64,000 nt of DNA, from IMG/VR virus record IMGVR_UViG_3300009108_000480. One strand, given 5' to 3'. The stretch comes from a virus (lineage: Duplodnaviria; Caudoviricetes). Of this stretch, positions 3,001-64,000 are shown piece by piece; within the stretch, counting starts at the first letter, position 1, and every line of letters starts with the position of its first letter. The notes under the pieces are model-generated. The model was not told the origin of the DNA, did no database searches, and was given only the letters and a program-made list of their open reading frames with translations. Position numbers and translations under genes: made by a program.

Positions 3001-4897
3001 TATCACCAATATTATTAATTGTATTATATTTTACTTTTATACCTAATACTGTATCTGTAGTTGCTGTTGTTGACGTTTTATAAGCAAAAACATTTGCTCC
3101 ACTAAAAGTCGAATTTGGATACGTTGTTGTATCATCAAATGATATATGATCATTATCCCACATACCAAACAGCGGTGCTTGATTTACTTTAATTTTTGTC
3201 TGCCCTGTTTTCCAAGTAGTTGTTGACTTATCATAATAATAAGTTTTACCTTGGTTTGCTGTTCCAAATTCAATAAAAATTGATTCGTTATCTGCAGGTA
3301 CGGCATCTGTAGCTTCGGTAAGATTAATTACTGACGTTGAGTCTCCGGCTTGTACAAAATTAATTACGTAAATTTTATTTTTTACAAGTGTATCGGTGTC
3401 TGCAGAAAATACTACTCTCATTCCATCTGCTACTGCTAATCCATCTATAATATAACCTGTTTGTGCAACTACATTAGAAAATGCATCAGTTGTAACTGTG
3501 TCAAATAATGTTACAGATGTTTTTGCCACAGTACCATGATTATATAAAGCAAGTCCCGAATCAAATTCTATAATTGGCCTTTTAGCTCTATCAGTTTCTA
3601 ATAAATTAGGTGTATAACCATTAGCATCTGCTGTTTCGTCAATTACAGATTTATGAAACCATCTATTATATCTTGACCAAGCATTTTGGTCTCTTGAATC
3701 TCTTTTAATTGTAATATAATCTTTTGTTTCCGGACGATAAAATGCTTTTGCATAAGGTCTAGAATCATACGCAATACTATCAAATAAAATAGTTGTTTCT
3801 GTAGCATATGATTCGGGAGTTATTAAATCTTCTATATTTGTAAATGTAATTGAATCTCCAACTCCTTCAACATAATATTCTTTACCTGCATATGTGCTAT
3901 CAGTAACATTAGATTCAAATTTAATTTTCATTCCATTTGATAAATTTAATGTTCTTAACGCATAATTTTTTGTACCTAAAATATCATTAGCAACGTCAAT
4001 TTTTGTTGTTGAACTTATCGTTCCAACAGTAAAAATTCCATACATACTATCATGATTGCCACATTGATAATAAAGTACATCTGGTGCCGTAGTTGGTACT
4101 GTAAAAGTAACTATACCCGAATCTGTTGCTGGGTTTATTACACCTGTTGTATATAAAGTAGAAGTTGATCCATCTTCTGCAACACCTTGACGATATGGTT
4201 CTGTCATTATATGGAATGGATGGCCTTTTGCGTCTACTTTAAATTTATAAGTATTACCTCTATATAATTTTATTTGAGGATTTCTTTCACTTTCTTTTGT
4301 TCCAAACTTCCATGCTCTTGTCGTACTTCCATCATCTGGCCATGCTGTTACATCAATTTCAACTAACGCCGTTGGTCCTACTGAATCTAATGTTATAGAA
4401 TTTGGACCTTCGGGCAACCAATAATATTCTCTATAATTGATTAACTTATCTAAATCAATGGCCGGGTTCCAAGAGTATATAACTTCTTTGTTTAGTCTAT
4501 CATGATTATCTACATTACCTCCAAAATATTTTATTTGATTAATATAATCATCATAGGTACCTGAAAATTTTACTTGGTCTTCTGGATTAACTGATGTTGT
4601 GTCTTTATCTGTGTAAGTTACTGCAGGCTCTAATTGATATGCCATTCTATCTCTATTAGTTGCAGACAGATATGTGTCAGTTATTTGTCTTGTATAAGCA
4701 TCTTGTCTACCAATATATCCATCTAATCTTTGTAATGCACCTTTTTGAATTAATGGATCAATAGTACTTGATAAAAATCTTGTGTTGCTATCTGTTCTAT
4801 AGAATACAGGTAAGTGTGCGATTGATCTGCGTAACTCAATTCCATCTTGAGTTACAACTTCTTGAACTGATTGTGAATTGGTTGCTTTATCTACCAT
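1..4897 (-). CDS. Very large virion/baseplate structural protein, 3'-truncated by the window edge (>1630 aa)
   Basis: Absent from the ORF track because it has no stop in the window. ATG at 4897-4895 overlaps the TAA of the gp6-like gene (TAATG) and reads MVDKATNSQSVQEVVTQDGIELRRSIAHLPVFYRTDSNTRFL. The same frame is open at the window edge (FDNTTVFSDIIYEPYTGYR). Only the ends were translated by hand. Confidence 0.75.
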   Translation of the reverse strand, partial: MVDKATNSQSVQEVVTQDGIELRRSIAHLPVFYRTDSNTRFLSSTIDPLIQKGALQRLDGYIGRQDAYTRQITDTYLSATNRDRMAYQLEPAVTYTDKDTTSVNPEDQVKFSGTYDDYINQIKYFGGNVDNHDRLNKEVIYSWNPAIDLDKLINYREYYWLPEGPNSITLDSVGPTALVEIDVTAWPDDGSTTRAWKFGTKESERNPQIKLYRGNTYKFKVDAKGHPFHIMTEPYRQGVAEDGSTSTLYTTGVINPATDSGIVTFTVPTTAPDVLYYQCGNHDSMYGIFTVGTISSTTKIDVANDILGTKNYALRTLNLSNGMKIKFESNVTDSTYAGKEYYVEGVGDSITFTNIEDLITPESYATETTILFDSIAYDSRPYAKAFYRPETKDYITIKRDSRDQNAWSRYNRWFHKSVIDETADANGYTPNLLETDRAKRPIIEFDSGLALYNHGTVAKTSVTLFDTVTTDAFSNVVAQTGYIIDGLAVADGMRVVFSADTDTLVKNKIYVINFVQAGDSTSVINLTEATDAVPADNESIFIEFGTANQGKTYYYDKSTTTWKTGQTKIKVNQAPLFGMWDNDHISFDDTTTYPNSTFSGANVFAYKTSTTATTDTVLGIKVKYNTINNIGDIVFESDHTAGTFTYRTDNNIITKNLSEGHLHYTTSLTTHNSKSAWVKRTNESKQRVVRTFIVDKTEKQLFQIDFYKNSISLTDLEISVTVNGIRKNLTTDYTIVNGTVNKYIQFVKELKVDDQIKLVGYSATKKVSNKGIYQIPENLSVNPLNIQKGTFTYGQILGHVKDIFDKNTDITGSIPGSSSLRDNPDATLNGGLIVQHEGTLLPAVFGLIDQEANVLIAIDYCNQEYEKFYNSFLTYGLGTAYEGIAADRVDEIIIAINQGRGSTFPFFYEDMIGVGENYSLRTYTVQDASETEYAIDSVHTMTETNNRAVYVYKNDVQLILGTEYTVSTTDDSINIISTLVAGDIIKIRDYSDTTGSFIPPTPTKLGLYPKFKPELFTDDTYLISQTMIRKHDGSFIKAYGDERDNLILELEKRIYNNIKTQYDSTLLDIGDVVPSAFKSTEYTLTEINDVMGSDFYIWAGRNGVQYINNTTFVEGSPFTYNYSASTDRINDAKLPGHWRGIYKYFYDTDSPHIRPWEILGYSEKPSTWESTYGLAPYTSGNTILWDAVAGHLGRYGKSSIASYIPVDTSGNLLDPIAAKLINTFDVPNRNQAWKFGDQGPAETSWRRSSAYPFSVIKTLALTKPAKFFNLFFDNSRLTKNISNNLISKDTNIIQQLSTANYHLETSTNIQTGVVTRYTTAGYQPFVVNYLIFKNLDPLTFFYNKLKQLDIQLAYKLGGFTDKENIKVLTDSVSPGSTSGSKFIPDENYKILFRTSNPVNSFNYSGVLIEKNTDTSIDGSTLLGGWKVLGYSTTKPYFNFYYPIKSITGQKVIVSDAEAIIYQNYQTTTQVIPYGHVFDTIQQVVDFLMGYGKWLESKGFVYDKFSNEIKEVLNWRLSVKEFLFWTTQPWAPGSAITISPGANGFQLNTENSIVGKLKNLAGDYSLLDAGGRKIDIVNVSTKRLGKNFEISIKDPDIGLYNIALNTVQKEHILLFDNTTVFSDIIYEPYTGYR

Positions 4898-29511: not shown

Positions 29512-30681
29512 ATGTCAGAAATATTTGAATCTAAATGGGGTGAAACTAAATCAGCCCTAACTGAAGGTTTAGAAGGCAACAAGAAAAAAGTGATGGGTGT
29601 CATTTTAGAAAATACTAAAAGATACTTGTCAGAACAAGCTACTGCAGGTGCTACATCTGCCGGTAACGTTGCTACACTAAACAGAGTGATTCTTCCAGTA
29701 ATTAGACGGGTTATGCCGACTGTTATAGCTAACGAAATCGTTGGTGTACAGCCGATGACTGGTCCAGTTGGACAGATTCACACCTTGAGAATAAGATATG
29801 CAGATGCGGCAGGCGGAACAACGGCTGGCGAAGAAGCATTATCACCTTTCAAAATTGCGAGAGCATACTCTGGTAATGAAACTGAAGCTACACCTAAAGC
29901 GGCAACAACAGCGTCGAAAGAAGGTACAGCTGGTAACAGACTATCAATCCAGATCTTGAAACAACCGGTTGAAGCTAAATCTAGAAAACTATCAGCTAGA
30001 TGGACGTTTGAAGCGGCTCAAGATGCTCAAGCACAACAAGGTATAGACGTAGAAGCAGAAATAATGGCGGCTTTGGCTCAAGAAATTACAGCTGAAATCG
30101 ACCAAGAAGTTATTGGATCATTAAGAACATTGGCTGGAACAGCCGCTGAAACTTATGACCAATCAGCTGTTTCTGGTACTGCAACTTTTGTTGGTGACGA
30201 ACACGCGGCTTTGGCTGTGTTAATCAACAGAGTGGCAAACTTAATTGCAACAAGAACACGTAGAGGAGCTGGAAACTGGTCAGTAGTTTCTCCAACTGCT
30301 TTAACGATTCTTCAATCTGCAACAACATCAGCATTTGCTAGATCAACTGAAGGTACTTTCGAAGCACCTACTAACACAAAATTTGTTGGTACGTTAAACG
30401 CTTCAATGAGAGTATACGTTGACGCATATGCAGTTGATGGTACATCAGTACTAGTTGGCTATAAAGGAGCAAGTGAGGCAGACGCACCAGCGTTCTATTG
30501 TCCTTACATTCCTTTAATGTCTTCAGGAGTTGTACTTGATCCAGCTACTTTCGAACCAGTTGTTGGCTTTTTAACAAGATATGGATATGTAGAGTTAACA
30601 AACACTGCATCTTCACTTGGTAATGCGGCTGACTACGTAGGTTTAGTAGCGATCACTTCAGCAAACTTAAAATTTAAGTAA
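29512..30681 (+). CDS. gp23: Major capsid protein, gp23-like (389 aa)
   Basis: VGVQPMTGPVGQIHTLR, AKSRKLSARWTFEAAQD, FYCPYIPL, F.TRYG motifs. Confidence 0.97.
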   Translation: MSEIFESKWGETKSALTEGLEGNKKKVMGVILENTKRYLSEQATAGATSAGNVATLNRVILPVIRRVMPTVIANEIVGVQPMTGPVGQIHTLRIRYADAAGGTTAGEEALSPFKIARAYSGNETEATPKAATTASKEGTAGNRLSIQILKQPVEAKSRKLSARWTFEAAQDAQAQQGIDVEAEIMAALAQEITAEIDQEVIGSLRTLAGTAAETYDQSAVSGTATFVGDEHAALAVLINRVANLIATRTRRGAGNWSVVSPTALTILQSATTSAFARSTEGTFEAPTNTKFVGTLNASMRVYVDAYAVDGTSVLVGYKGASEADAPAFYCPYIPLMSSGVVLDPATFEPVVGFLTRYGYVELTNTASSLGNAADYVGLVAITSANLKFK

Positions 30682-57662: not shown

Positions 57663-59045
57663 ATGCCAAGTATTAATAGTTTTCTTAAAGGATTTCAAGA
57701 CGGCCTTCCAGGAATGAAGGATTTCCGTCATGCTTCACGATTATATATTGACGATCATTTTAAACTTGCACCAAAACAAAAATTTCTCTTTCATGTAGTA
57801 TTAACACTTAATGACGTTGTAACTCAAAGAAAATTTACTCCTAATGAATTAATAGAATTGAATATGCTAGTAAAAAGCTGTGAACTTCCTCGTTACAATA
57901 TGAACATAGAGGAAAAAACTCAATATAATAAAAAAATGTATACAGCAACACGTATCGCATATGATCCTATAAACATTACATTTCATGATGATCATGCTGA
58001 TACTGTAAATGCTTTTTGGAAAAAATATTATGAATATAATGTTGCAGATTCAGTACATCTTAATGAAGAACTTGCAGAAAAATATGCTAAAGATGATTAT
58101 TATACAACAAATAGAAAAACTACAAAGTGGGGTTTAGATACTCCTAAACAAAGTAAACTTCCATTTATAAAAAATATTGAAATTTTTGTATTACACAAAC
58201 AAAGATTTACATCATTTAGATTGATTAATCCTGTTATTGGTTCATTTAATCATGACAATTTAGACCAAGCAGATGGAACTGGTATTATGCAAAATACAAT
58301 GCAAGTTTTATATGAAACTGTAAGATACAAAGCAGGAGTGGTTGGAAAATCGGCAATAACAGGATGGGCTACATTACACTATGATAATGAGCCTTCACCT
58401 TTAAGTGTATTAGGTAAAGGTACAAATTCTCTTTTTGGTCCTGGGGGTGTTGTGGATGGCATTGGTTCTGTAATAGGTATGGCTAGAGAAGGAAATATTT
58501 TAGGTGCAATTATTGGTGCGTCAAACACATATAATAATGCTAAAAAAATGAAAAAATCAGCGGTCAAAGAAGAATTAAAAGGAATTGTTAAAGAAGGTGT
58601 TTTAGAAGTTGGCAAACAAGCAGGTACAATTACAAATCCTGTTGGTTCTTTTGCAGTTGGCGCCGTGGCGGCAACAGCACTAACTCTTGCAACTGCAAAA
58701 GGTACAGTCGATAATAAAAATCGACAAAATACAACAGTAATATCGGCTCCACAATTAGATACTGTAAATTTTCTTACACCAGATGAATCTTATACTCTTA
58801 TAACAACAAACACAACCGTAAGAGATGCAATCGCGGCAGGTATATATTATAAAGACATTGGTTCTCGAAAAGGTTTAACAGTAGCAGAAAGTGACATAGA
58901 ATATTCAGGCTCTCTTGATACAACAAAAACAGTATATAGAGCTAAAGCAAATACAGATATTCGTAAACTTGTAACAGAAGGATATATAAAAATTAATAGA
59001 GATACACAAAACGTATCTATTATAACTGAAAAGGCAAACTTATAA
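57663..59045 (+). CDS. Second tube-fold protein (tube initiator-like) with C-terminal extension
   Basis: P.QKFLFHV, LVKSCELP.Y, YDPINITFHDD, NTMQVLYE; TATAAATA at 57648-57655. Confidence 0.6.
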   Translation: MPSINSFLKGFQDGLPGMKDFRHASRLYIDDHFKLAPKQKFLFHVVLTLNDVVTQRKFTPNELIELNMLVKSCELPRYNMNIEEKTQYNKKMYTATRIAYDPINITFHDDHADTVNAFWKKYYEYNVADSVHLNEELAEKYAKDDYYTTNRKTTKWGLDTPKQSKLPFIKNIEIFVLHKQRFTSFRLINPVIGSFNHDNLDQADGTGIMQNTMQVLYETVRYKAGVVGKSAITGWATLHYDNEPSPLSVLGKGTNSLFGPGGVVDGIGSVIGMAREGNILGAIIGASNTYNNAKKMKKSAVKEELKGIVKEGVLEVGKQAGTITNPVGSFAVGAVAATALTLATAKGTVDNKNRQNTTVISAPQLDTVNFLTPDESYTLITTNTTVRDAIAAGIYYKDIGSRKGLTVAESDIEYSGSLDTTKTVYRAKANTDIRKLVTEGYIKINRDTQNVSIITEKANL

Positions 59046-59422
59046 TGGCAAATTCTTATACAAACCTACCTCCTAAAGATAAAAATCAGTTAGATAAAAC
59101 AATTGAAAAATTAACTACATCAAATTATCAAGAAGAATTTCAATTTAACGTTGGTGAATATGACGCGGCAATTGCCTTTTTTGTTAAAAGAGGATTTTCA
59201 AGAAGTGCGGCCGAAACAACTGCTTATATAATTTTACAACAAGCAAAAATAGATTCGGTAAGTCCTCAACAAATTTTAGATCAACTTACAGTCTCCTCTC
59301 CAGCTCAACTTTCTGAATTAATAACAATTATATTAAATGCCAATAGATATAAATCAAGTAGATTAGGAGTAAGGCAAACTCGTACAACGAAAGATACTGT
59401 GTCTAGAAACATTCTAGACTAA
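59045..59422 (+). CDS. Hypothetical protein (125 aa)
   Basis: TAATG-coupled ORF in the tail operon. Confidence 0.65.
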   Translation: MANSYTNLPPKDKNQLDKTIEKLTTSNYQEEFQFNVGEYDAAIAFFVKRGFSRSAAETTAYIILQQAKIDSVSPQQILDQLTVSSPAQLSELITIILNANRYKSSRLGVRQTRTTKDTVSRNILD

Positions 59423-59862
59423 TGATACCAAGATTTGCTAAAGGAAAATTTTCATTAAAAAATCCAGAAAAATATGTTGGACTAAAAACGCCAACTTATA
59501 GAAGTAGTTGGGAACACGGATTTATGAGATTATGTGATGAACATCCTAACGTATATAAATGGGCTAGTGAATCAATAAAAATACCTTATAGGCACCCATT
59601 AACAGGCAAGTATACAATCTATGTACCGGATTTTTTCATTGTTTACATGGACAAAGAAGGGCGTAAACACGCCGAAATGGTTGAAGTTAAGCCATTGTCC
59701 CAGACTTCTCTAGAATCTGCTGGTAAAAGTATGGGCAAAAAGAAACAAGTTATAATTAATCGTGCTAAATGGGAGGCCGCTTCTGCCTATGCTCGACAAA
59801 ATAAAATGATATTTAGAGTAGTATCAGAAGACCAATTATTCCATCAAGGTACACGTAAATAA
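59422..59862 (+). CDS. gp4: Head completion nuclease, gp4-like
   Basis: KNPEKYVG...YRSSWE.GFM..CD....KWASE...Y.PDF...EVKP. Confidence 0.9.
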   Translation: MIPRFAKGKFSLKNPEKYVGLKTPTYRSSWEHGFMRLCDEHPNVYKWASESIKIPYRHPLTGKYTIYVPDFFIVYMDKEGRKHAEMVEVKPLSQTSLESAGKSMGKKKQVIINRAKWEAASAYARQNKMIFRVVSEDQLFHQGTRK

Positions 59863-60427: not shown

Positions 60428-61027
60428 ATGAGCACGTTTACAAAATATCTAACAGAATCAGTTAAGACCTATGAATATAAAATCAAAATAGCGGGTGATA
60501 TTGAAAAAGGCTTCGCTAATCGTTTGGAAACTGCTTGTCAAAAATTTGAAATACAAAAATTATCAGCAGGAAAGAAAACTCCAATACAATCGCTACCTTT
60601 AGACTTTCCAACAATAAAAAATGAATCTGTTACAATTTTCGATCTTCAAACTTCTTATCCAGTTGCAGTAAATGAATTAAGAGAATATATTGCTGATTAT
60701 ATGAGAATTTCTCCAGCTTGTGTAGTTGTAAGAAAACCAGGAGAACCATCAGAAGAATATCAAGAAACAATTGCAAATGCAACTAAATCAGAATACAAAA
60801 ATAAACTTCATGACATAGAATATAAAGACGCACCTAAAGTAAATGCAGAAGATTTTCATTCTACGAAAGCAAACATGAGTTTGTTAAAAGAATTATTAAA
60901 AGACAGAGATCTTAATAAGGAAGAAACTCCAAAAGAAAAAGAAAATATTACAACTAAAGAAGACTCACCAGCAGATTCTCCATTTACAAAAACAACAAAT
61001 CCACATCCGGATCCAAAGAGAAAATAA
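60428..61027 (+). CDS. Hypothetical late protein (199 aa)
   Basis: TAAATA at 60414-60419; no motif recognised. Confidence 0.7.
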   Translation: MSTFTKYLTESVKTYEYKIKIAGDIEKGFANRLETACQKFEIQKLSAGKKTPIQSLPLDFPTIKNESVTIFDLQTSYPVAVNELREYIADYMRISPACVVVRKPGEPSEEYQETIANATKSEYKNKLHDIEYKDAPKVNAEDFHSTKANMSLLKELLKDRDLNKEETPKEKENITTKEDSPADSPFTKTTNPHPDPKRK

Positions 61028-61029
61028 TT

Positions 61030-61098
61030 ATGCCTTGTAATAATCCAAATTGTCAGTGTGAAAATTGTACTTGTGAAAATTGTACTTGCAGAGAATAA
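61030..61098 (+). CDS. Unannotated 22-aa Cys-rich microprotein MPCNNPNCQCENCTCENCTCRE, metallothionein-like
   Basis: 7 Cys with three C-x-C motifs; fits between flanking genes with 2-nt and 3-nt gaps; contains a 15-nt tandem duplication. Confidence 0.65.
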   Translation: MPCNNPNCQCENCTCENCTCRE

Positions 61099-61101
61099 AT
61101 T

Positions 61102-62595
61102 ATGGAAATGGTTGACGTTTTACAAAAACTAAAAGAAATTACTAACAAATCTCCAGAAGTTGCAAAAGCAATTAAAAGTGTAGAATCAACAACTAATCCA
61201 AAAACCGAAGTTGCACCTCCAGGAAGAGAAAAACAAGTAAAAGCATTAAAAGGAAAAGTAGACAATCCTTATGCAGTTGCTTGGTCATCTTATAATAAAT
61301 CTAAAGGCAAAAAAGAATCAATAAAAGAAGGCGGAATGTCAGACGTACATATTGGTGCACAAGAAAAAGTTGGTGAATATGTTGATCAAGACGGCAATCT
61401 TTCGGCACCTAAACAAGATGTATTACAATCATTAGAACAACAAAGAGCATCAGCTCCTTTTCCAGAATCATATGAAATTGAAACTGCAATAAAAATGGTA
61501 CAAGATGATTTTGATGACAACGGTCAAGCAAAAGCAGAATATGAACCTGATCCAGAAGACAATATTCCACACGATGTAGATACACAAATGAATATGGACG
61601 CACCAGCAGAAGAACAACCAATAAAAGAAGCACCAAATCCTAAAAGAGAAGCTATACAAACTCTTGAAGCATTAAGAGATATGGTTATGGAATTACCTAT
61701 ATCCGATGATGCTAAAACTTCGGCCCATACAGCATTAGATCAAGTGTCAGACGATATCATGATGGACACAGCTACTGATGAAGAAGCAACTGCAGAAGAA
61801 CCAAAAATTGAAGAAGATACTCTTAATATAAATGGAATGACAACTGAAGAAGATGTTATTAGCATGATTCAAGATACTATAAGTGCTGGAAAAGGTGACG
61901 ATGCAAAAGATTACCTAGAACAGTTTAAACAGTATCTATTTGTAAAATCAGGTGGACGAGCGGAGTCAAAAGAACTAAATACAGAAACAATGAAAAAAGA
62001 AGATAAAAAACCCCTTAAAGAAGCAATTACAATGTCTGCAGACACACCTCAAGAAGCAGGTATGTTAATGCAAATTTTAAAACTTGCAGGTGTACAACAA
62101 GTAACACCTGATATGATTGGTGCAGAAGAACCAACAGCAGATGTACCAACTAATGATGCCGATCACGATCATAACAACGACGGCGAACAAGATCACGCAC
62201 CACAAGATTGTAATGTTTGCTCTGGTGACGATGCAATTGGCTCACAAGGAATGGGTAATATGAGAGATATAATCTCTAAAAATGATAATGATGAACAAGC
62301 AGAAGAAACTTGGGATAATGCACCAGATGAAAAAGTTGACGACCTTGACACATTAGTGAACGTTCATTCAGGTGGCTTAAACAAACAAAAACAACAAGTA
62401 AGAAAAGAATATCCAGGTGACAATCCACTTGCCGCCGAAGATAAAATTAGCGAAGAAGATTTAGCCAATAGTTTAAGAACACAATACGAAGGCTTTAAAA
62501 AATCTTACCAAGAAGCAACAAAAGTTGCTGAAACAAAAGCAGAACCAAAAGAAGAAGAAGAAGTAAAGAAAGAAGCTGTTGCTGACAAAAAATAA
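61102..62595 (+). CDS. Large acidic protein, possibly internal/prohead core (497 aa)
   Basis: Very D/E-rich, low complexity; NPYAVAWSSYNK motif. Confidence 0.65.
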   Translation: MEMVDVLQKLKEITNKSPEVAKAIKSVESTTNPKTEVAPPGREKQVKALKGKVDNPYAVAWSSYNKSKGKKESIKEGGMSDVHIGAQEKVGEYVDQDGNLSAPKQDVLQSLEQQRASAPFPESYEIETAIKMVQDDFDDNGQAKAEYEPDPEDNIPHDVDTQMNMDAPAEEQPIKEAPNPKREAIQTLEALRDMVMELPISDDAKTSAHTALDQVSDDIMMDTATDEEATAEEPKIEEDTLNINGMTTEEDVISMIQDTISAGKGDDAKDYLEQFKQYLFVKSGGRAESKELNTETMKKEDKKPLKEAITMSADTPQEAGMLMQILKLAGVQQVTPDMIGAEEPTADVPTNDADHDHNNDGEQDHAPQDCNVCSGDDAIGSQGMGNMRDIISKNDNDEQAEETWDNAPDEKVDDLDTLVNVHSGGLNKQKQQVRKEYPGDNPLAAEDKISEEDLANSLRTQYEGFKKSYQEATKVAETKAEPKEEEEVKKEAVADKK

Positions 62596-62607: not shown

Positions 62608-62826
62608 ATGAGCATAAACGGAAAAGTAAAATGGTATAATGGAACCAAAGGATTTGGTTTTATTGCCAGAGAAGACAACGAAAAAGATGTATTTGTTCAC
62701 AGAACGGCTCTTCAAGCCGCAGGTATACCCAACCTGAGAGAAGGTGAACAATTAACATTTGATGTAGATATAGCGGCAAAAGGACCTTGCGCCGTTAATT
62801 TACAAAAACCTGACATAAACAGTTAG
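62608..62826 (+). CDS. csp: Cold-shock domain protein (CspA family)
   Basis: GKVKWYN..KGFGFI (RNP1) and DVFVH (RNP2), G..A.NL; 72 aa. Confidence 0.92.
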   Translation: MSINGKVKWYNGTKGFGFIAREDNEKDVFVHRTALQAAGIPNLREGEQLTFDVDIAAKGPCAVNLQKPDINS

Positions 62827-62861: not shown

Positions 62862-64000
62862 ATGGCGTATGTATCGTTAGACAGTGAACAGGTAAAACGT
62901 GCCCATAAAAAGCACAAATATACCAAAGAACAAGTCTTACAACTCGAACAGTGTATGAACACAAAGACTGGACCGTTGTATTTCATGGAAACATTTATGA
63001 GAATACAACATCCAACTAAAGGTGAAATGGCTTTTCATCCTTATTCTTTTCAAAAAAGATTAATTGAATCATATAACAATTATCGATTTTCTGTATCAAT
63101 GCTACCACGACAAACAGGTAAAACAACCTGTGCGGCAGGATATATTATTTGGTATGCTATGTTCCATCCAGATTCATCTATATTAATTGCGGCACACAAA
63201 TACGCAGGTGCGTCTGACATTATGTCACGTGTAAGATTTTCATACGAAATGTTACCTGAATGGATTAAAGCTGGAGTAACGCAATACAATAGAAATTCTA
63301 TAGAATTTGACAATGGTTCAAAAATAATAGCAACTACTACAACTGAAAATACTGGGCGGGGTATGTCTTTAACAATGATATATTGTGATGAGTTTGCATT
63401 CGTGCAACCACCAGATAAAGCAAAAGAATTTTGGACGTCACTATCTCCTACCTTGTCAACAGGAGGTAAGTGTATGATTACATCAACTCCAAACTCTGAT
63501 GAAGATCAATTTGCGTTAATTTGGAAAGAAGCTAATAAAAAATTCGATGAATACGGCAATGATAAAATTGTAGGAACTAATGGCTTCTATGCCATGAAAG
63601 CTCACTGGTCAGAACATCCTGAACGAGATGATAAGTGGGCAGAAACTGAAAAAGCAAGAATAGGTGAGGAAAGATTTAGACGAGAACACGAATGTGAGTT
63701 TATAATCTTTGATGAAACATTAATTAACTCTACAACATTAGCAGAAATGGAAGGTACTCTTCCTATAGAAAGTACAGGACAGGTACGTTGGTATAAAAGA
63801 CCCACACCAGGACATACATATATGGTATCATTAGATCCAAGCATGGGTACAGGTGGCGACTATGCGGCTATACAAGTATTTGAATTGCCAACATTTGAGC
63901 AAGTTGCAGAATGGCGTCATAATGAAACACCAATGAATCAGCAAATTAGAATATTACAAGGAATTACCAAACATATACATGACACTATAATAGAGAAAGA
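62862..64000 (+). CDS. gp17: Terminase large subunit, gp17-like, 3'-truncated by the window edge
   Basis: Absent from the ORF track. ATG 62862 reads MAYVSLDSEQVKRAHKK; Walker A LPRQTGKTT, Walker B IYCDEFAF, ITSTPN, nuclease aspartate in SLDPSMGTGGDY; TAAATA at 62849-62854. Confidence 0.95.
   Translation, partial: MAYVSLDSEQVKRAHKKHKYTKEQVLQLEQCMNTKTGPLYFMETFMRIQHPTKGEMAFHPYSFQKRLIESYNNYRFSVSMLPRQTGKTTCAAGYIIWYAMFHPDSSILIAAHKYAGASDIMSRVRFSYEMLPEWIKAGVTQYNRNSIEFDNGSKIIATTTTENTGRGMSLTMIYCDEFAFVQPPDKAKEFWTSLSPTLSTGGKCMITSTPNSDEDQFALIWKEANKKFDEYGNDKIVGTNGFYAMKAHWSEHPERDDKWAETEKARIGEERFRREHECEFIIFDETLINSTTLAEMEGTLPIESTGQVRWYKRPTPGHTYMVSLDPSMGTGGDYAAIQVFELPTFEQVAEWRHNETPMNQQIRILQGITKHIHDTIIEK

Follow-up and report, generated by a model that had tools for sequence, protein, structure and literature searches.

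A seven-cysteine micro-gene at a gene junction of a marine jumbo-type phage and its unannotated family of putative metallothionein-like peptides

The micro-gene and its place in the late structural module

The window, i.e. the whole stretch of 64,000 nucleotides that was analysed (IMG/VR record IMGVR_UViG_3300009108_000480), is part of a marine phage of the T4-like or jumbo type. Its T4-type large terminase, which starts at position 62862 and was identified by a profile match, resembles its counterparts in the jumbo phages PA5oct, CBB and GAP32. Profile matches also identified a tail-tube homologue (57663-59045) and a gp4-type head-closure protein with a TnsA-like endonuclease fold (59422-59862). 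These genes are followed on the plus strand by a late gene for a virion structural protein of 199 aa (60428..61027; phrog_14802, E 1.3e-9), which shares 30-32% identity with annotated virion structural proteins of the three jumbo phages mentioned above. Only 2 nt separate its stop codon TAA (61025-61027) from the ATG of the micro-gene that is the subject of this study (61030..61098, plus strand). The micro-gene comprises 22 codons from ATG to TAA and encodes MPCNNPNCQCENCTCENCTCRE, one complete CxNPNC-type Cys7 module. It is followed on the same strand by a late gene for an acidic protein of 497 aa (61102..62595; 22% Asp plus Glu), which had no match in Pfam or PHROGs, and by a gene for a cold-shock-domain protein of 72 aa (62608-62826; PF00313, E 3e-21) located directly before the large terminase gene. 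A scan of the neighbours in the window against Pfam and PHROGs revealed neither a metal gene nor a maturase beside the micro-gene.

The encoded peptide is of unusual composition. Seven of its 22 residues (32%) are cysteines, six of which form three CxC pairs (C8-Q-C10, C13-T-C15 and C18-T-C20), and it is devoid of Phe, Trp, Tyr and His, with the initiator methionine as the sole hydrophobic residue. The core follows directly upon the dipeptide M-P, i.e. there is no leader, and a signal peptide for an oxidising compartment is absent. The 69-nt open reading frame (ORF) occupies a gap of 74 nt on the coding strand between the upstream stop (61027) and the downstream start (61102). Within the frame lies an exact tandem duplication of 15 nt (61057..61086, plus strand; TGTGAAAATTGTACT twice), which encodes CENCT twice and for which no match was obtained in 100 shuffles. 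The cysteine content, the three CxC pairs, the lack of aromatic residues, the nearly filled gap and the duplication had all been pointed out in a previous sequence-only reading of this locus, and direct reading of the DNA confirmed each of them. MPCNNPNCQCENCTCENCTCRE thus shows several of the traits by which metallothioneins are operationally defined: a low molecular mass, a cysteine content of about 15-35% arranged as CxC or CxxC motifs, a scarcity or lack of aromatic side chains, and the absence of a hydrophobic core.

We asked how exceptional such a composition is in this genome. When all six frames of the window were read, 383 ORFs of 15-40 aa that begin with ATG were obtained, of which the micro-gene was the only one with at least 25% cysteine, and shuffled windows contained on average 0.1 ORFs that were as rich in cysteine. 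Hence, shuffling yields a similarly cysteine-rich ORF about once per ten windows, and off-frame cysteine-rich stretches are common in this AT-rich genome. Both observations would be expected if the frame was a chance opening in a non-coding insertion or part of a structured RNA. The cysteine composition is consequently suggestive, but alone not decisive, and it is the conservation described below that settles the reality of the micro-gene. Regarding an RNA element, the fold z-score of +1.74 gave no predicted structure for the micro-gene region and Rfam returned no match, and this possibility was rejected.

The last codons of the micro-gene might serve a second purpose. The junction AGA GAA TAA ATT ATG (61090..61104, plus strand) consists of the last two codons, the stop codon, a 3-nt spacer and the next start codon, and it places the purine-rich run AGAGAA (GGAGAA in other alleles) 7-12 nt before the ATG of the acidic gene. 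We infer that this run doubles as a Shine-Dalgarno-like element for the next gene.

Presence, absence and conservation of the cassette in related phages

A search with the 199-aa protein yielded 56 related IMG/VR loci. At about 50 of these loci, the two flanking genes are only 2-4 nt apart (TAA, 2-4 nt, ATG), and the gap of 74 nt is present in this set exclusively in the window and in locus L001, where it contains the same ORF. The micro-gene and its ATT spacer consequently form a cassette of 72 nt (61030..61101, plus strand), which is missing from most relatives and represents a presence/absence polymorphism located exactly at the stop/start junction. Pattern scans provided further carriers, namely L059 and L061-L064 from the viral collection and ten metagenome contigs; the pattern used for the metagenomes fixed the first ten codons only and left the second half free.

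In total, six alleles of the micro-gene were found at this site on 17 contigs. All 16 contigs that reach the end of the frame carry 22 intact codons, whereas the seventeenth is cut by the contig end. The allele of L058 differs from that of the window by four substitutions, all of which are synonymous, and the remaining alleles carry synonymous changes plus E16V, R21G and E22K. All Cys, Asn, Pro and Thr positions are unchanged in every allele at this site. A chance open frame is contradicted by these data, since every full-length copy is intact and all changes are either synonymous or conservative, and it is also at odds with the clear homologues that exist across prokaryotes (see below). Taking the composition and the conservation together, we regard a chance frame or a structured RNA as an almost negligible explanation of the locus.

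The nucleotide identity of the ORF between carriers amounts to 94-97%, compared to 79-88% over the 700 nt upstream and 61-77% over the 700 nt downstream, a pattern that strong constraint and a recent exchange of the cassette between phages could each explain. In a tree of the upstream protein, the carriers fell into two separate sub-clades of one well-supported clade, with a non-carrier near each of them, so that the cassette must have been gained or lost at least twice. Such a distribution fits an exchange by recombination among related phages, and equally a repeated loss of the cassette. The relatives of the 497-aa protein (L002-L056) range in length from 273 to 497 aa due to a variable middle part, while the N-terminus (MEMIDVL) and the C-terminal part are conserved. 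While the acidic protein of the window resembles its counterpart in L003, the upstream gene places L003 together with the L059 carriers, which indicates recombination breakpoints around this junction.

The variable part of the acidic protein also bears on a link that the sequence-only reading had drawn between the micro-gene and a patch of His and Cys residues (DHDHNNDG...CNVC) carried by the following protein. This patch does exist, at about residues 352-380 of the protein encoded at 61102-62595. However, it is common to the window and L003 only; L003 is devoid of the micro-gene, and the carriers L062 and L063 contain a different, shorter segment in place of the patch. The patch is therefore neither conserved nor does it co-vary with the micro-gene, and we abandoned the proposed link.

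R21G is the sole recurrent amino-acid polymorphism and it is located in the purine-rich run, where the underlying change from AGA to GGA would convert AGAGAA to GGAGAA; its effect may thus be to adjust the ribosome site of the next gene and not the peptide. Together with the purine-rich last codons and the position of the frame, which is wedged between translationally coupled genes, this polymorphism would suit a regulatory leader ORF, in which the run of cysteine codons senses the supply of Cys-tRNA and sets the translation of the 497-aa gene, while the peptide itself is irrelevant. Short cysteine-dense ORFs of this kind are found in mycobacteria, where polycysteine leaders located upstream of genes for cysteine metabolism act as cysteine-responsive attenuators through their codon content. 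However, the 497-aa protein contains only two cysteines and many of its homologues contain none, which leaves cysteine sensing without an evident logic, and the roughly 50 relatives mentioned above do without the micro-gene.

The CxNPNC-type Cys7 family and its genomic neighbourhoods

To define the family, two degenerate DNA patterns, encoding CENCTCENCTC and NPNC-x-C-x2-CTC, were scanned against a collection with one genome per prokaryotic species and against IMG/VR. The first pattern was found in 8 genome stretches and 8 viral contigs, the second in at least 120 genome stretches and 31 viral contigs. Among the matches listed, short ORFs with the arrangement C-x-N-P-N-C-x-C-x2-C-x-C were present at 101 bacterial or archaeal loci and at about 30 viral ones. 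The carriers include Mycobacterium, Mycolicibacterium, Gordonia, Kocuria, Acidimicrobiia and Thermoleophilia, many Chitinophagaceae, Mucilaginibacter, Flavobacterium agri, Winogradskyella and Mariniflexile, as well as alphaproteobacterial metagenome-assembled genomes (MAGs), Fimbriimonadaceae and Patescibacteria. Marine members belong to Dehalococcoidia/SAR202, Verrucomicrobiota and Neomarinimicrobiota, and archaeal members were found in MAGs of Nitrosopumilales and Thaumarchaeota. Judged by its residues, MPCNNPNCQCENCTCENCTCRE is the bare core module and the smallest form of this family, for which the consensus C-x-N-P-N-C-x-C-x2-C-T-C-x2/3-C-x-C can be written.

An alignment of 50 short members (A2) revealed the invariant positions C3, N5, P6, N7, C8, C10, C13, T14, C15, C18 and C20 (numbering of the window peptide), of which those from N5 to C15 were imposed by the search patterns, so that their conservation is partly circular. 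The window peptide agrees with every invariant column. The final CxC pair, which was not imposed, is kept in 18 of 19 viral sequences, and it follows after a spacer of two or three residues in the bacterial members. Furthermore, TGT and TGC are both used at every cysteine position, and all four proline and all four threonine codons occur, in genomes that span 28-70% GC. Since such varied codons encode conserved residues across this range, selection acts at the level of the peptide. The conservation of cysteines, which the sequence-only reading had proposed to examine, holds in all alleles at the phage site and in A2 alike. From these data we conclude with high confidence that the frame at 61030-61098 is a true gene, that it codes for a protein and that it belongs to the Cys7 family, and the metallothionein traits noted earlier are those of a genuine micro-gene under selection.

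The same data argue against the leader ORF introduced above. In contrast to the mycobacterial polycysteine leaders, non-cysteine residues (N-P-N and T) are conserved here across phyla and over the whole range of GC contents, which is not the behaviour of an attenuator, and the contexts vary: the same peptide is also encoded at operon ends and by lone genes. A leader function is consequently a highly improbable explanation, and the reading of the frame as a gene that is selected for its peptide is the one we follow below.

The CENCT units differ by one to three synonymous changes in bacteria and in phage L057, and they are exact copies of each other in the lineage of the window and in L060, which carries three units. 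Because the bacterial and L057 units differ synonymously, the arrangement CENCTCENCTC with two units is old and shared with bacteria rather than a private slip of this phage. Variation in repeat number, which had been put forward as a further check, thus exists between members of the family, which carry one to three units, and is lacking in the phage lineage, in which the frame always comprises 22 codons. In phage L057 (IMGVR_UViG_3300032006_000918), an ORF on the minus strand (3110-3235, reverse complement) encodes MAELKEEWKCENCTCENCTCTEENKCENCECMNTDVS, which contains CENCTCENCTC without the C-x-N-P-N-C head and suggests that the repeat unit can exist alone.

Compared to the phage core, the cellular versions carry an added N-terminal tail of 5-20 residues, extra CxC pairs or a second module. 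The viral members comprise 19-31 residues, and nearly all of them are preceded by an AGGAG-type site 6-9 nt before the ATG. They are encoded on the same strand as their neighbours, from which they are separated by 0-14 nt, and the neighbours of the other viral members differ from the genes in the window. By these features, the viral members have the appearance of genes and are cassette-like in their behaviour. The ribosome site in the window itself (AGAGAA) is a weak one.

Several proteins with related motifs were observed beside the short members. A Tenericutes MAG (L175, CANPIX010000014.1) encodes on the minus strand (1563-1901, reverse complement) a protein of 112 aa with a 4Fe-4S ferredoxin-like CxxCxxC start and an acidic, cysteine-rich tail containing C-D-N-P-N-C-T-C-D-P-C-T-C, which looks like a natural fusion of a ferredoxin to a micro-metallothionein-like module; L162 contains a partial copy of such a protein, cut by the contig end. 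The archaeal loci L171 (Thaumarchaeota UBA223) and L181 (Nitrosopumilales MAG) share C-S-N-P-N-C-K-C-T-N-C-T-C-D..., are both cut by the locus end, and the copy in L181 starts with M-D-P-N-C-S, like vertebrate metallothioneins. In the library of representative proteins, P0011 (213 aa) and P0029 (207 aa) contain 3-6 tandem units of the type C-x-C-(D/N)-P-C-T-C-D-P-C-x-C, with a hydrophobic stretch resembling a membrane anchor at the C-terminal end of P0011, and these two proteins may represent relatives of the repeat unit from eukaryotes or protists. An ORF of 43 aa in Okeania and related cyanobacteria (L100, L117, L118, L131, L137, L170 and L185; MIKFLPFATTIFSIDRG.SINPNCLCVYCTCPT...) is hydrophobic and was excluded as a chance match to the pattern; it recurs in several contigs and may belong to a repeat element.

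The family seems to be unannotated and largely omitted by current annotation. Six members had no match at E up to 10 in Pfam-A or NCBIfam, including PF02069 (Metallothio_Pro) and the metallothionein models, and the window peptide had none in PHROGs or Pfam at E up to 0.01. Seven peptides of the family from RefSeq (NZ_) genomes are absent from a collection of 15 billion proteins, a family profile retrieved only 24 proteins at E up to 0.001 from 1.84 billion representatives, and a homologue search with a two-module relative of 54 aa returned only seven unnamed proteins. Against cultured phages, tblastn with the 22-aa peptide gave no match, which is probably due to masking of the query by the low-complexity filter, and blastn gave only chance AT-rich matches. 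A match in Pelagibacter phage HTVC008M was discarded as a different protein outside the NPNC family; this hypothetical protein (AGE60383.1; L215:1420-1542, record 30276-30398) has 40 aa with seven cysteines and three histidines in the arrangement CxxC ... CxxCxC. Literature queries with motif strings (e.g. NPNCTC, CENCTC) and with metallothionein plus phage returned no description of the family.

Next to the cellular homologues, genes related to metals were found in some lineages. In Parafilimonas, the peptide gene is located between a gene for a CDF cation-efflux protein and one for a heavy-metal-binding HMBD protein, after which an HMA-bearing TonB-dependent receptor is encoded. In a MAG of Actinomycetota, a two-module version is encoded directly downstream of an HMA-bearing P-type ATPase on the same strand. 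To obtain a broader picture, 150 immediately flanking proteins from about 80 of the 101 loci were surveyed on the basis of alignment A1. The raw counts amount to 11 PepSY_TM proteins, 11 AraC regulators, 8 ECF sigma factors, 3 Caa3_CtaG/CopD proteins (counted after removal of most mycobacterial duplicates), 3 BlaI/CopY-type and 2 CsoR-type proteins and 2 CDF proteins.

A recurrent actinobacterial order is PepSY_TM, peptide, BlaI/CopY-type repressor, in which the genes are co-directional with overlapping stop and start codons, and which probably constitutes a three-gene operon. In Mycobacterium and other Actinomycetota MAGs (L080, L097, L111, L119, L180 and L187), two-module versions of 50-57 aa start within a few nt of the stop codon of a PepSY_TM protein of roughly 510 aa, or overlap it, and a repressor of the BlaI/CopY family comes next in at least three of these six loci. 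In fast-growing mycobacteria (Mycolicibacterium), a version of 36 aa is arranged tail-to-tail with a CtaG-domain protein of 667 aa, which equals Rv0102/MSMEG_4702 in length and architecture. The latter was implicated in copper uptake in 2024 (PMC11413399). The mycobacterial adjacency is convergent rather than operonic, and it may reflect plain synteny. The neighbours of the marine members (SAR202, Verrucomicrobiota and Neomarinimicrobiota) were uninformative, and the Kocuria and flavobacterial loci showed no clear relation to metals. The metal link is thus real in some lineages, while the picture for the family as a whole is patchy. The metallothionein interpretation offered by the sequence-only reading accordingly gains from those cellular homologues that lie beside metal-efflux or sensor genes, but draws nothing from the marine and several other loci.

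The neighbourhoods also bear on a thiol or redox function. Short cysteine-rich peptides are typical substrates of radical SAM maturases, and MPCNNPNCQCENCTCENCTCRE could accordingly be the precursor of a modified, RiPP-like peptide with cross-links introduced by a radical SAM or another maturase, or alternatively a sacrificial reductant or a disulfide-bonded peptide. However, a RiPP precursor would be expected to carry a leader in front of its core, which this peptide lacks, and there is likewise no signal peptide that would direct it to an oxidising compartment. Apart from the missing maturase beside the phage gene, no radical SAM family occurred among the 25 most frequent neighbour families of the homologues (150 flanking proteins). 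We therefore consider a redox peptide or a modified-peptide precursor to be very unlikely.

Likeness to known metal-binding peptides and a possible role in infection

The best functional analogue that we can name would be the fungal seven-cysteine copper-thionein. Fungal copper-thioneins of family 8 (Neurospora crassa or Agaricus bisporus type) comprise 25-26 residues with seven cysteines and bind a Cu(I)6 cluster. The sequence-only reading had stressed that the phage peptide is much shorter than bacterial metallothioneins, which is true, but its size and cysteine count equal those of these fungal proteins. Both share the size class, seven cysteines in three CxC pairs plus a lone cysteine and a single domain, and both lack aromatic residues and histidine. 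However, the order of the motifs is mirrored, as the lone cysteine comes first in MPCNNPNCQCENCTCENCTCRE and last in the fungal proteins, the spacers of the phage peptide abound in Asn, Glu and Thr where the fungal ones abound in Gly and Ser, and the invariant N-P-N turn of the Cys7 family is missing from the fungal copper-thioneins. A search of the PDB sequences at E up to 10 returned no fungal metallothionein.

The only metallothioneins touched by the family profile were the beta domains of vertebrate metallothioneins (PDB 2mhu and 2mrb; PF00131), i.e. MT-2 of rabbit and human, with a non-significant E of 6.4. The segments P-N-C-x-C ... C-T-C ... C-x-C can be aligned, and both families start with (D/N)-P-N-C-x-C, but the vertebrate domain contains nine cysteines with longer spacers instead of seven, and Pfam gave no match. 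This likeness is most probably convergent. Bacterial SmtA/BmtA (PF02069) and MymT are, at 50-56 residues, cytosolic cysteine-rich metal buffers of prokaryotes that often adjoin metal sensors or exporters. In contrast to SmtA, which has a zinc-finger-like fold with histidine ligands and aromatic residues, MPCNNPNCQCENCTCENCTCRE contains no histidine and is less than half as long.

A search of the PDB sequences with the single peptide gave no match, whereas the top match of the family profile was the zinc-binding turn C-T-N-P-N-C of a WRKY DNA-binding domain, at a non-significant E of 0.29. This match is consistent with the main rival of a metal buffer, a structural zinc micro-domain in which one or two Zn(II) shape a knuckle or a binuclear cluster that binds a phage or host protein or nucleic acid, e.g. 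as an inhibitor or assembly cofactor. The N-P-N residues and the threonine are as invariant as the cysteines, an invariance that would sooner be expected of a defined fold than of a classical metallothionein, and the gene lies in a late structural module adjoining a virion protein. However, the members in other phages occur in quite different neighbourhoods, and the bacterial members are free-standing beside metal transporters or sensors, both of which speak against a partner that is tied to this junction. In addition, the modules have been duplicated or lengthened by CxC pairs, as in metallothioneins. Weighing these points, we regard a structural zinc micro-domain as rather unlikely.

We consider it probable that MPCNNPNCQCENCTCENCTCRE is metallothionein-like and adopts its fold around a metal-thiolate cluster. 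This reading is based on the lack of a hydrophobic core, the share of one third of cysteines and the multiplication of modules or their extension by CxC pairs; a polar peptide of this kind could presumably fold only around metal ions. As for the metal, copper is slightly favoured by the CsoR, CopY-type, CopD/CtaG and P1B-ATPase neighbours of the cellular homologues, and the CDF neighbour points to zinc or cadmium. Translation of the frame, binding of metal, the identity of the metal and the benefit to the phage are what we infer from comparisons of this kind.

A mechanism can be sketched on this basis. In this uncultured marine phage of the T4-like jumbo type, the late gene would have been acquired as a self-contained cassette of 72 nt, placed where two tightly coupled genes of the structural module meet stop to start, and its translation is probably coupled to that of the upstream gene (TAA, 2 nt, ATG). 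By analogy with the seven-cysteine copper-thioneins of fungi, the seven thiolates of the peptide would accommodate about 4-6 Cu(I) or 2-3 Zn(II)/Cd(II), and the peptide could buffer or sequester copper or zinc in the infected cell while late genes are expressed. We can only speculate that such buffering late in infection is what the phage gains. Iron-sulfur enzymes are classical targets of Cu(I) toxicity. As a tentative hypothesis, which we hold with less confidence than the metallothionein-like nature of the peptide, phages of the ocean might carry and exchange a mobile micro-metallothionein cassette of about 70 nt, an auxiliary gene with which they would control copper or zinc in the infected cell, for example by shielding such enzymes from Cu(I) late in infection.

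If these proposals are true, MPCNNPNCQCENCTCENCTCRE would be the shortest metallothionein of the prokaryote type known, and it would come from a large family that annotation has missed across bacteria and archaea. The 22-residue peptide with its seven cysteines can be synthesised chemically and would represent a minimal model of a metal-thiolate cluster, and cultured carriers such as Segetibacter koreensis DSM 18137, Flavobacterium agri, Mycolicibacterium species and Winogradskyella undariae are available for genetics. Provided that the peptides bind metal, mycobacteria, Chitinophagaceae, SAR202, ammonia-oxidising archaea and other groups would harbour a hidden metallothionein family, and metal buffering would join the host processes that are reprogrammed by marine phages, by means of a gene of 69 nt that slots into a junction between two others.
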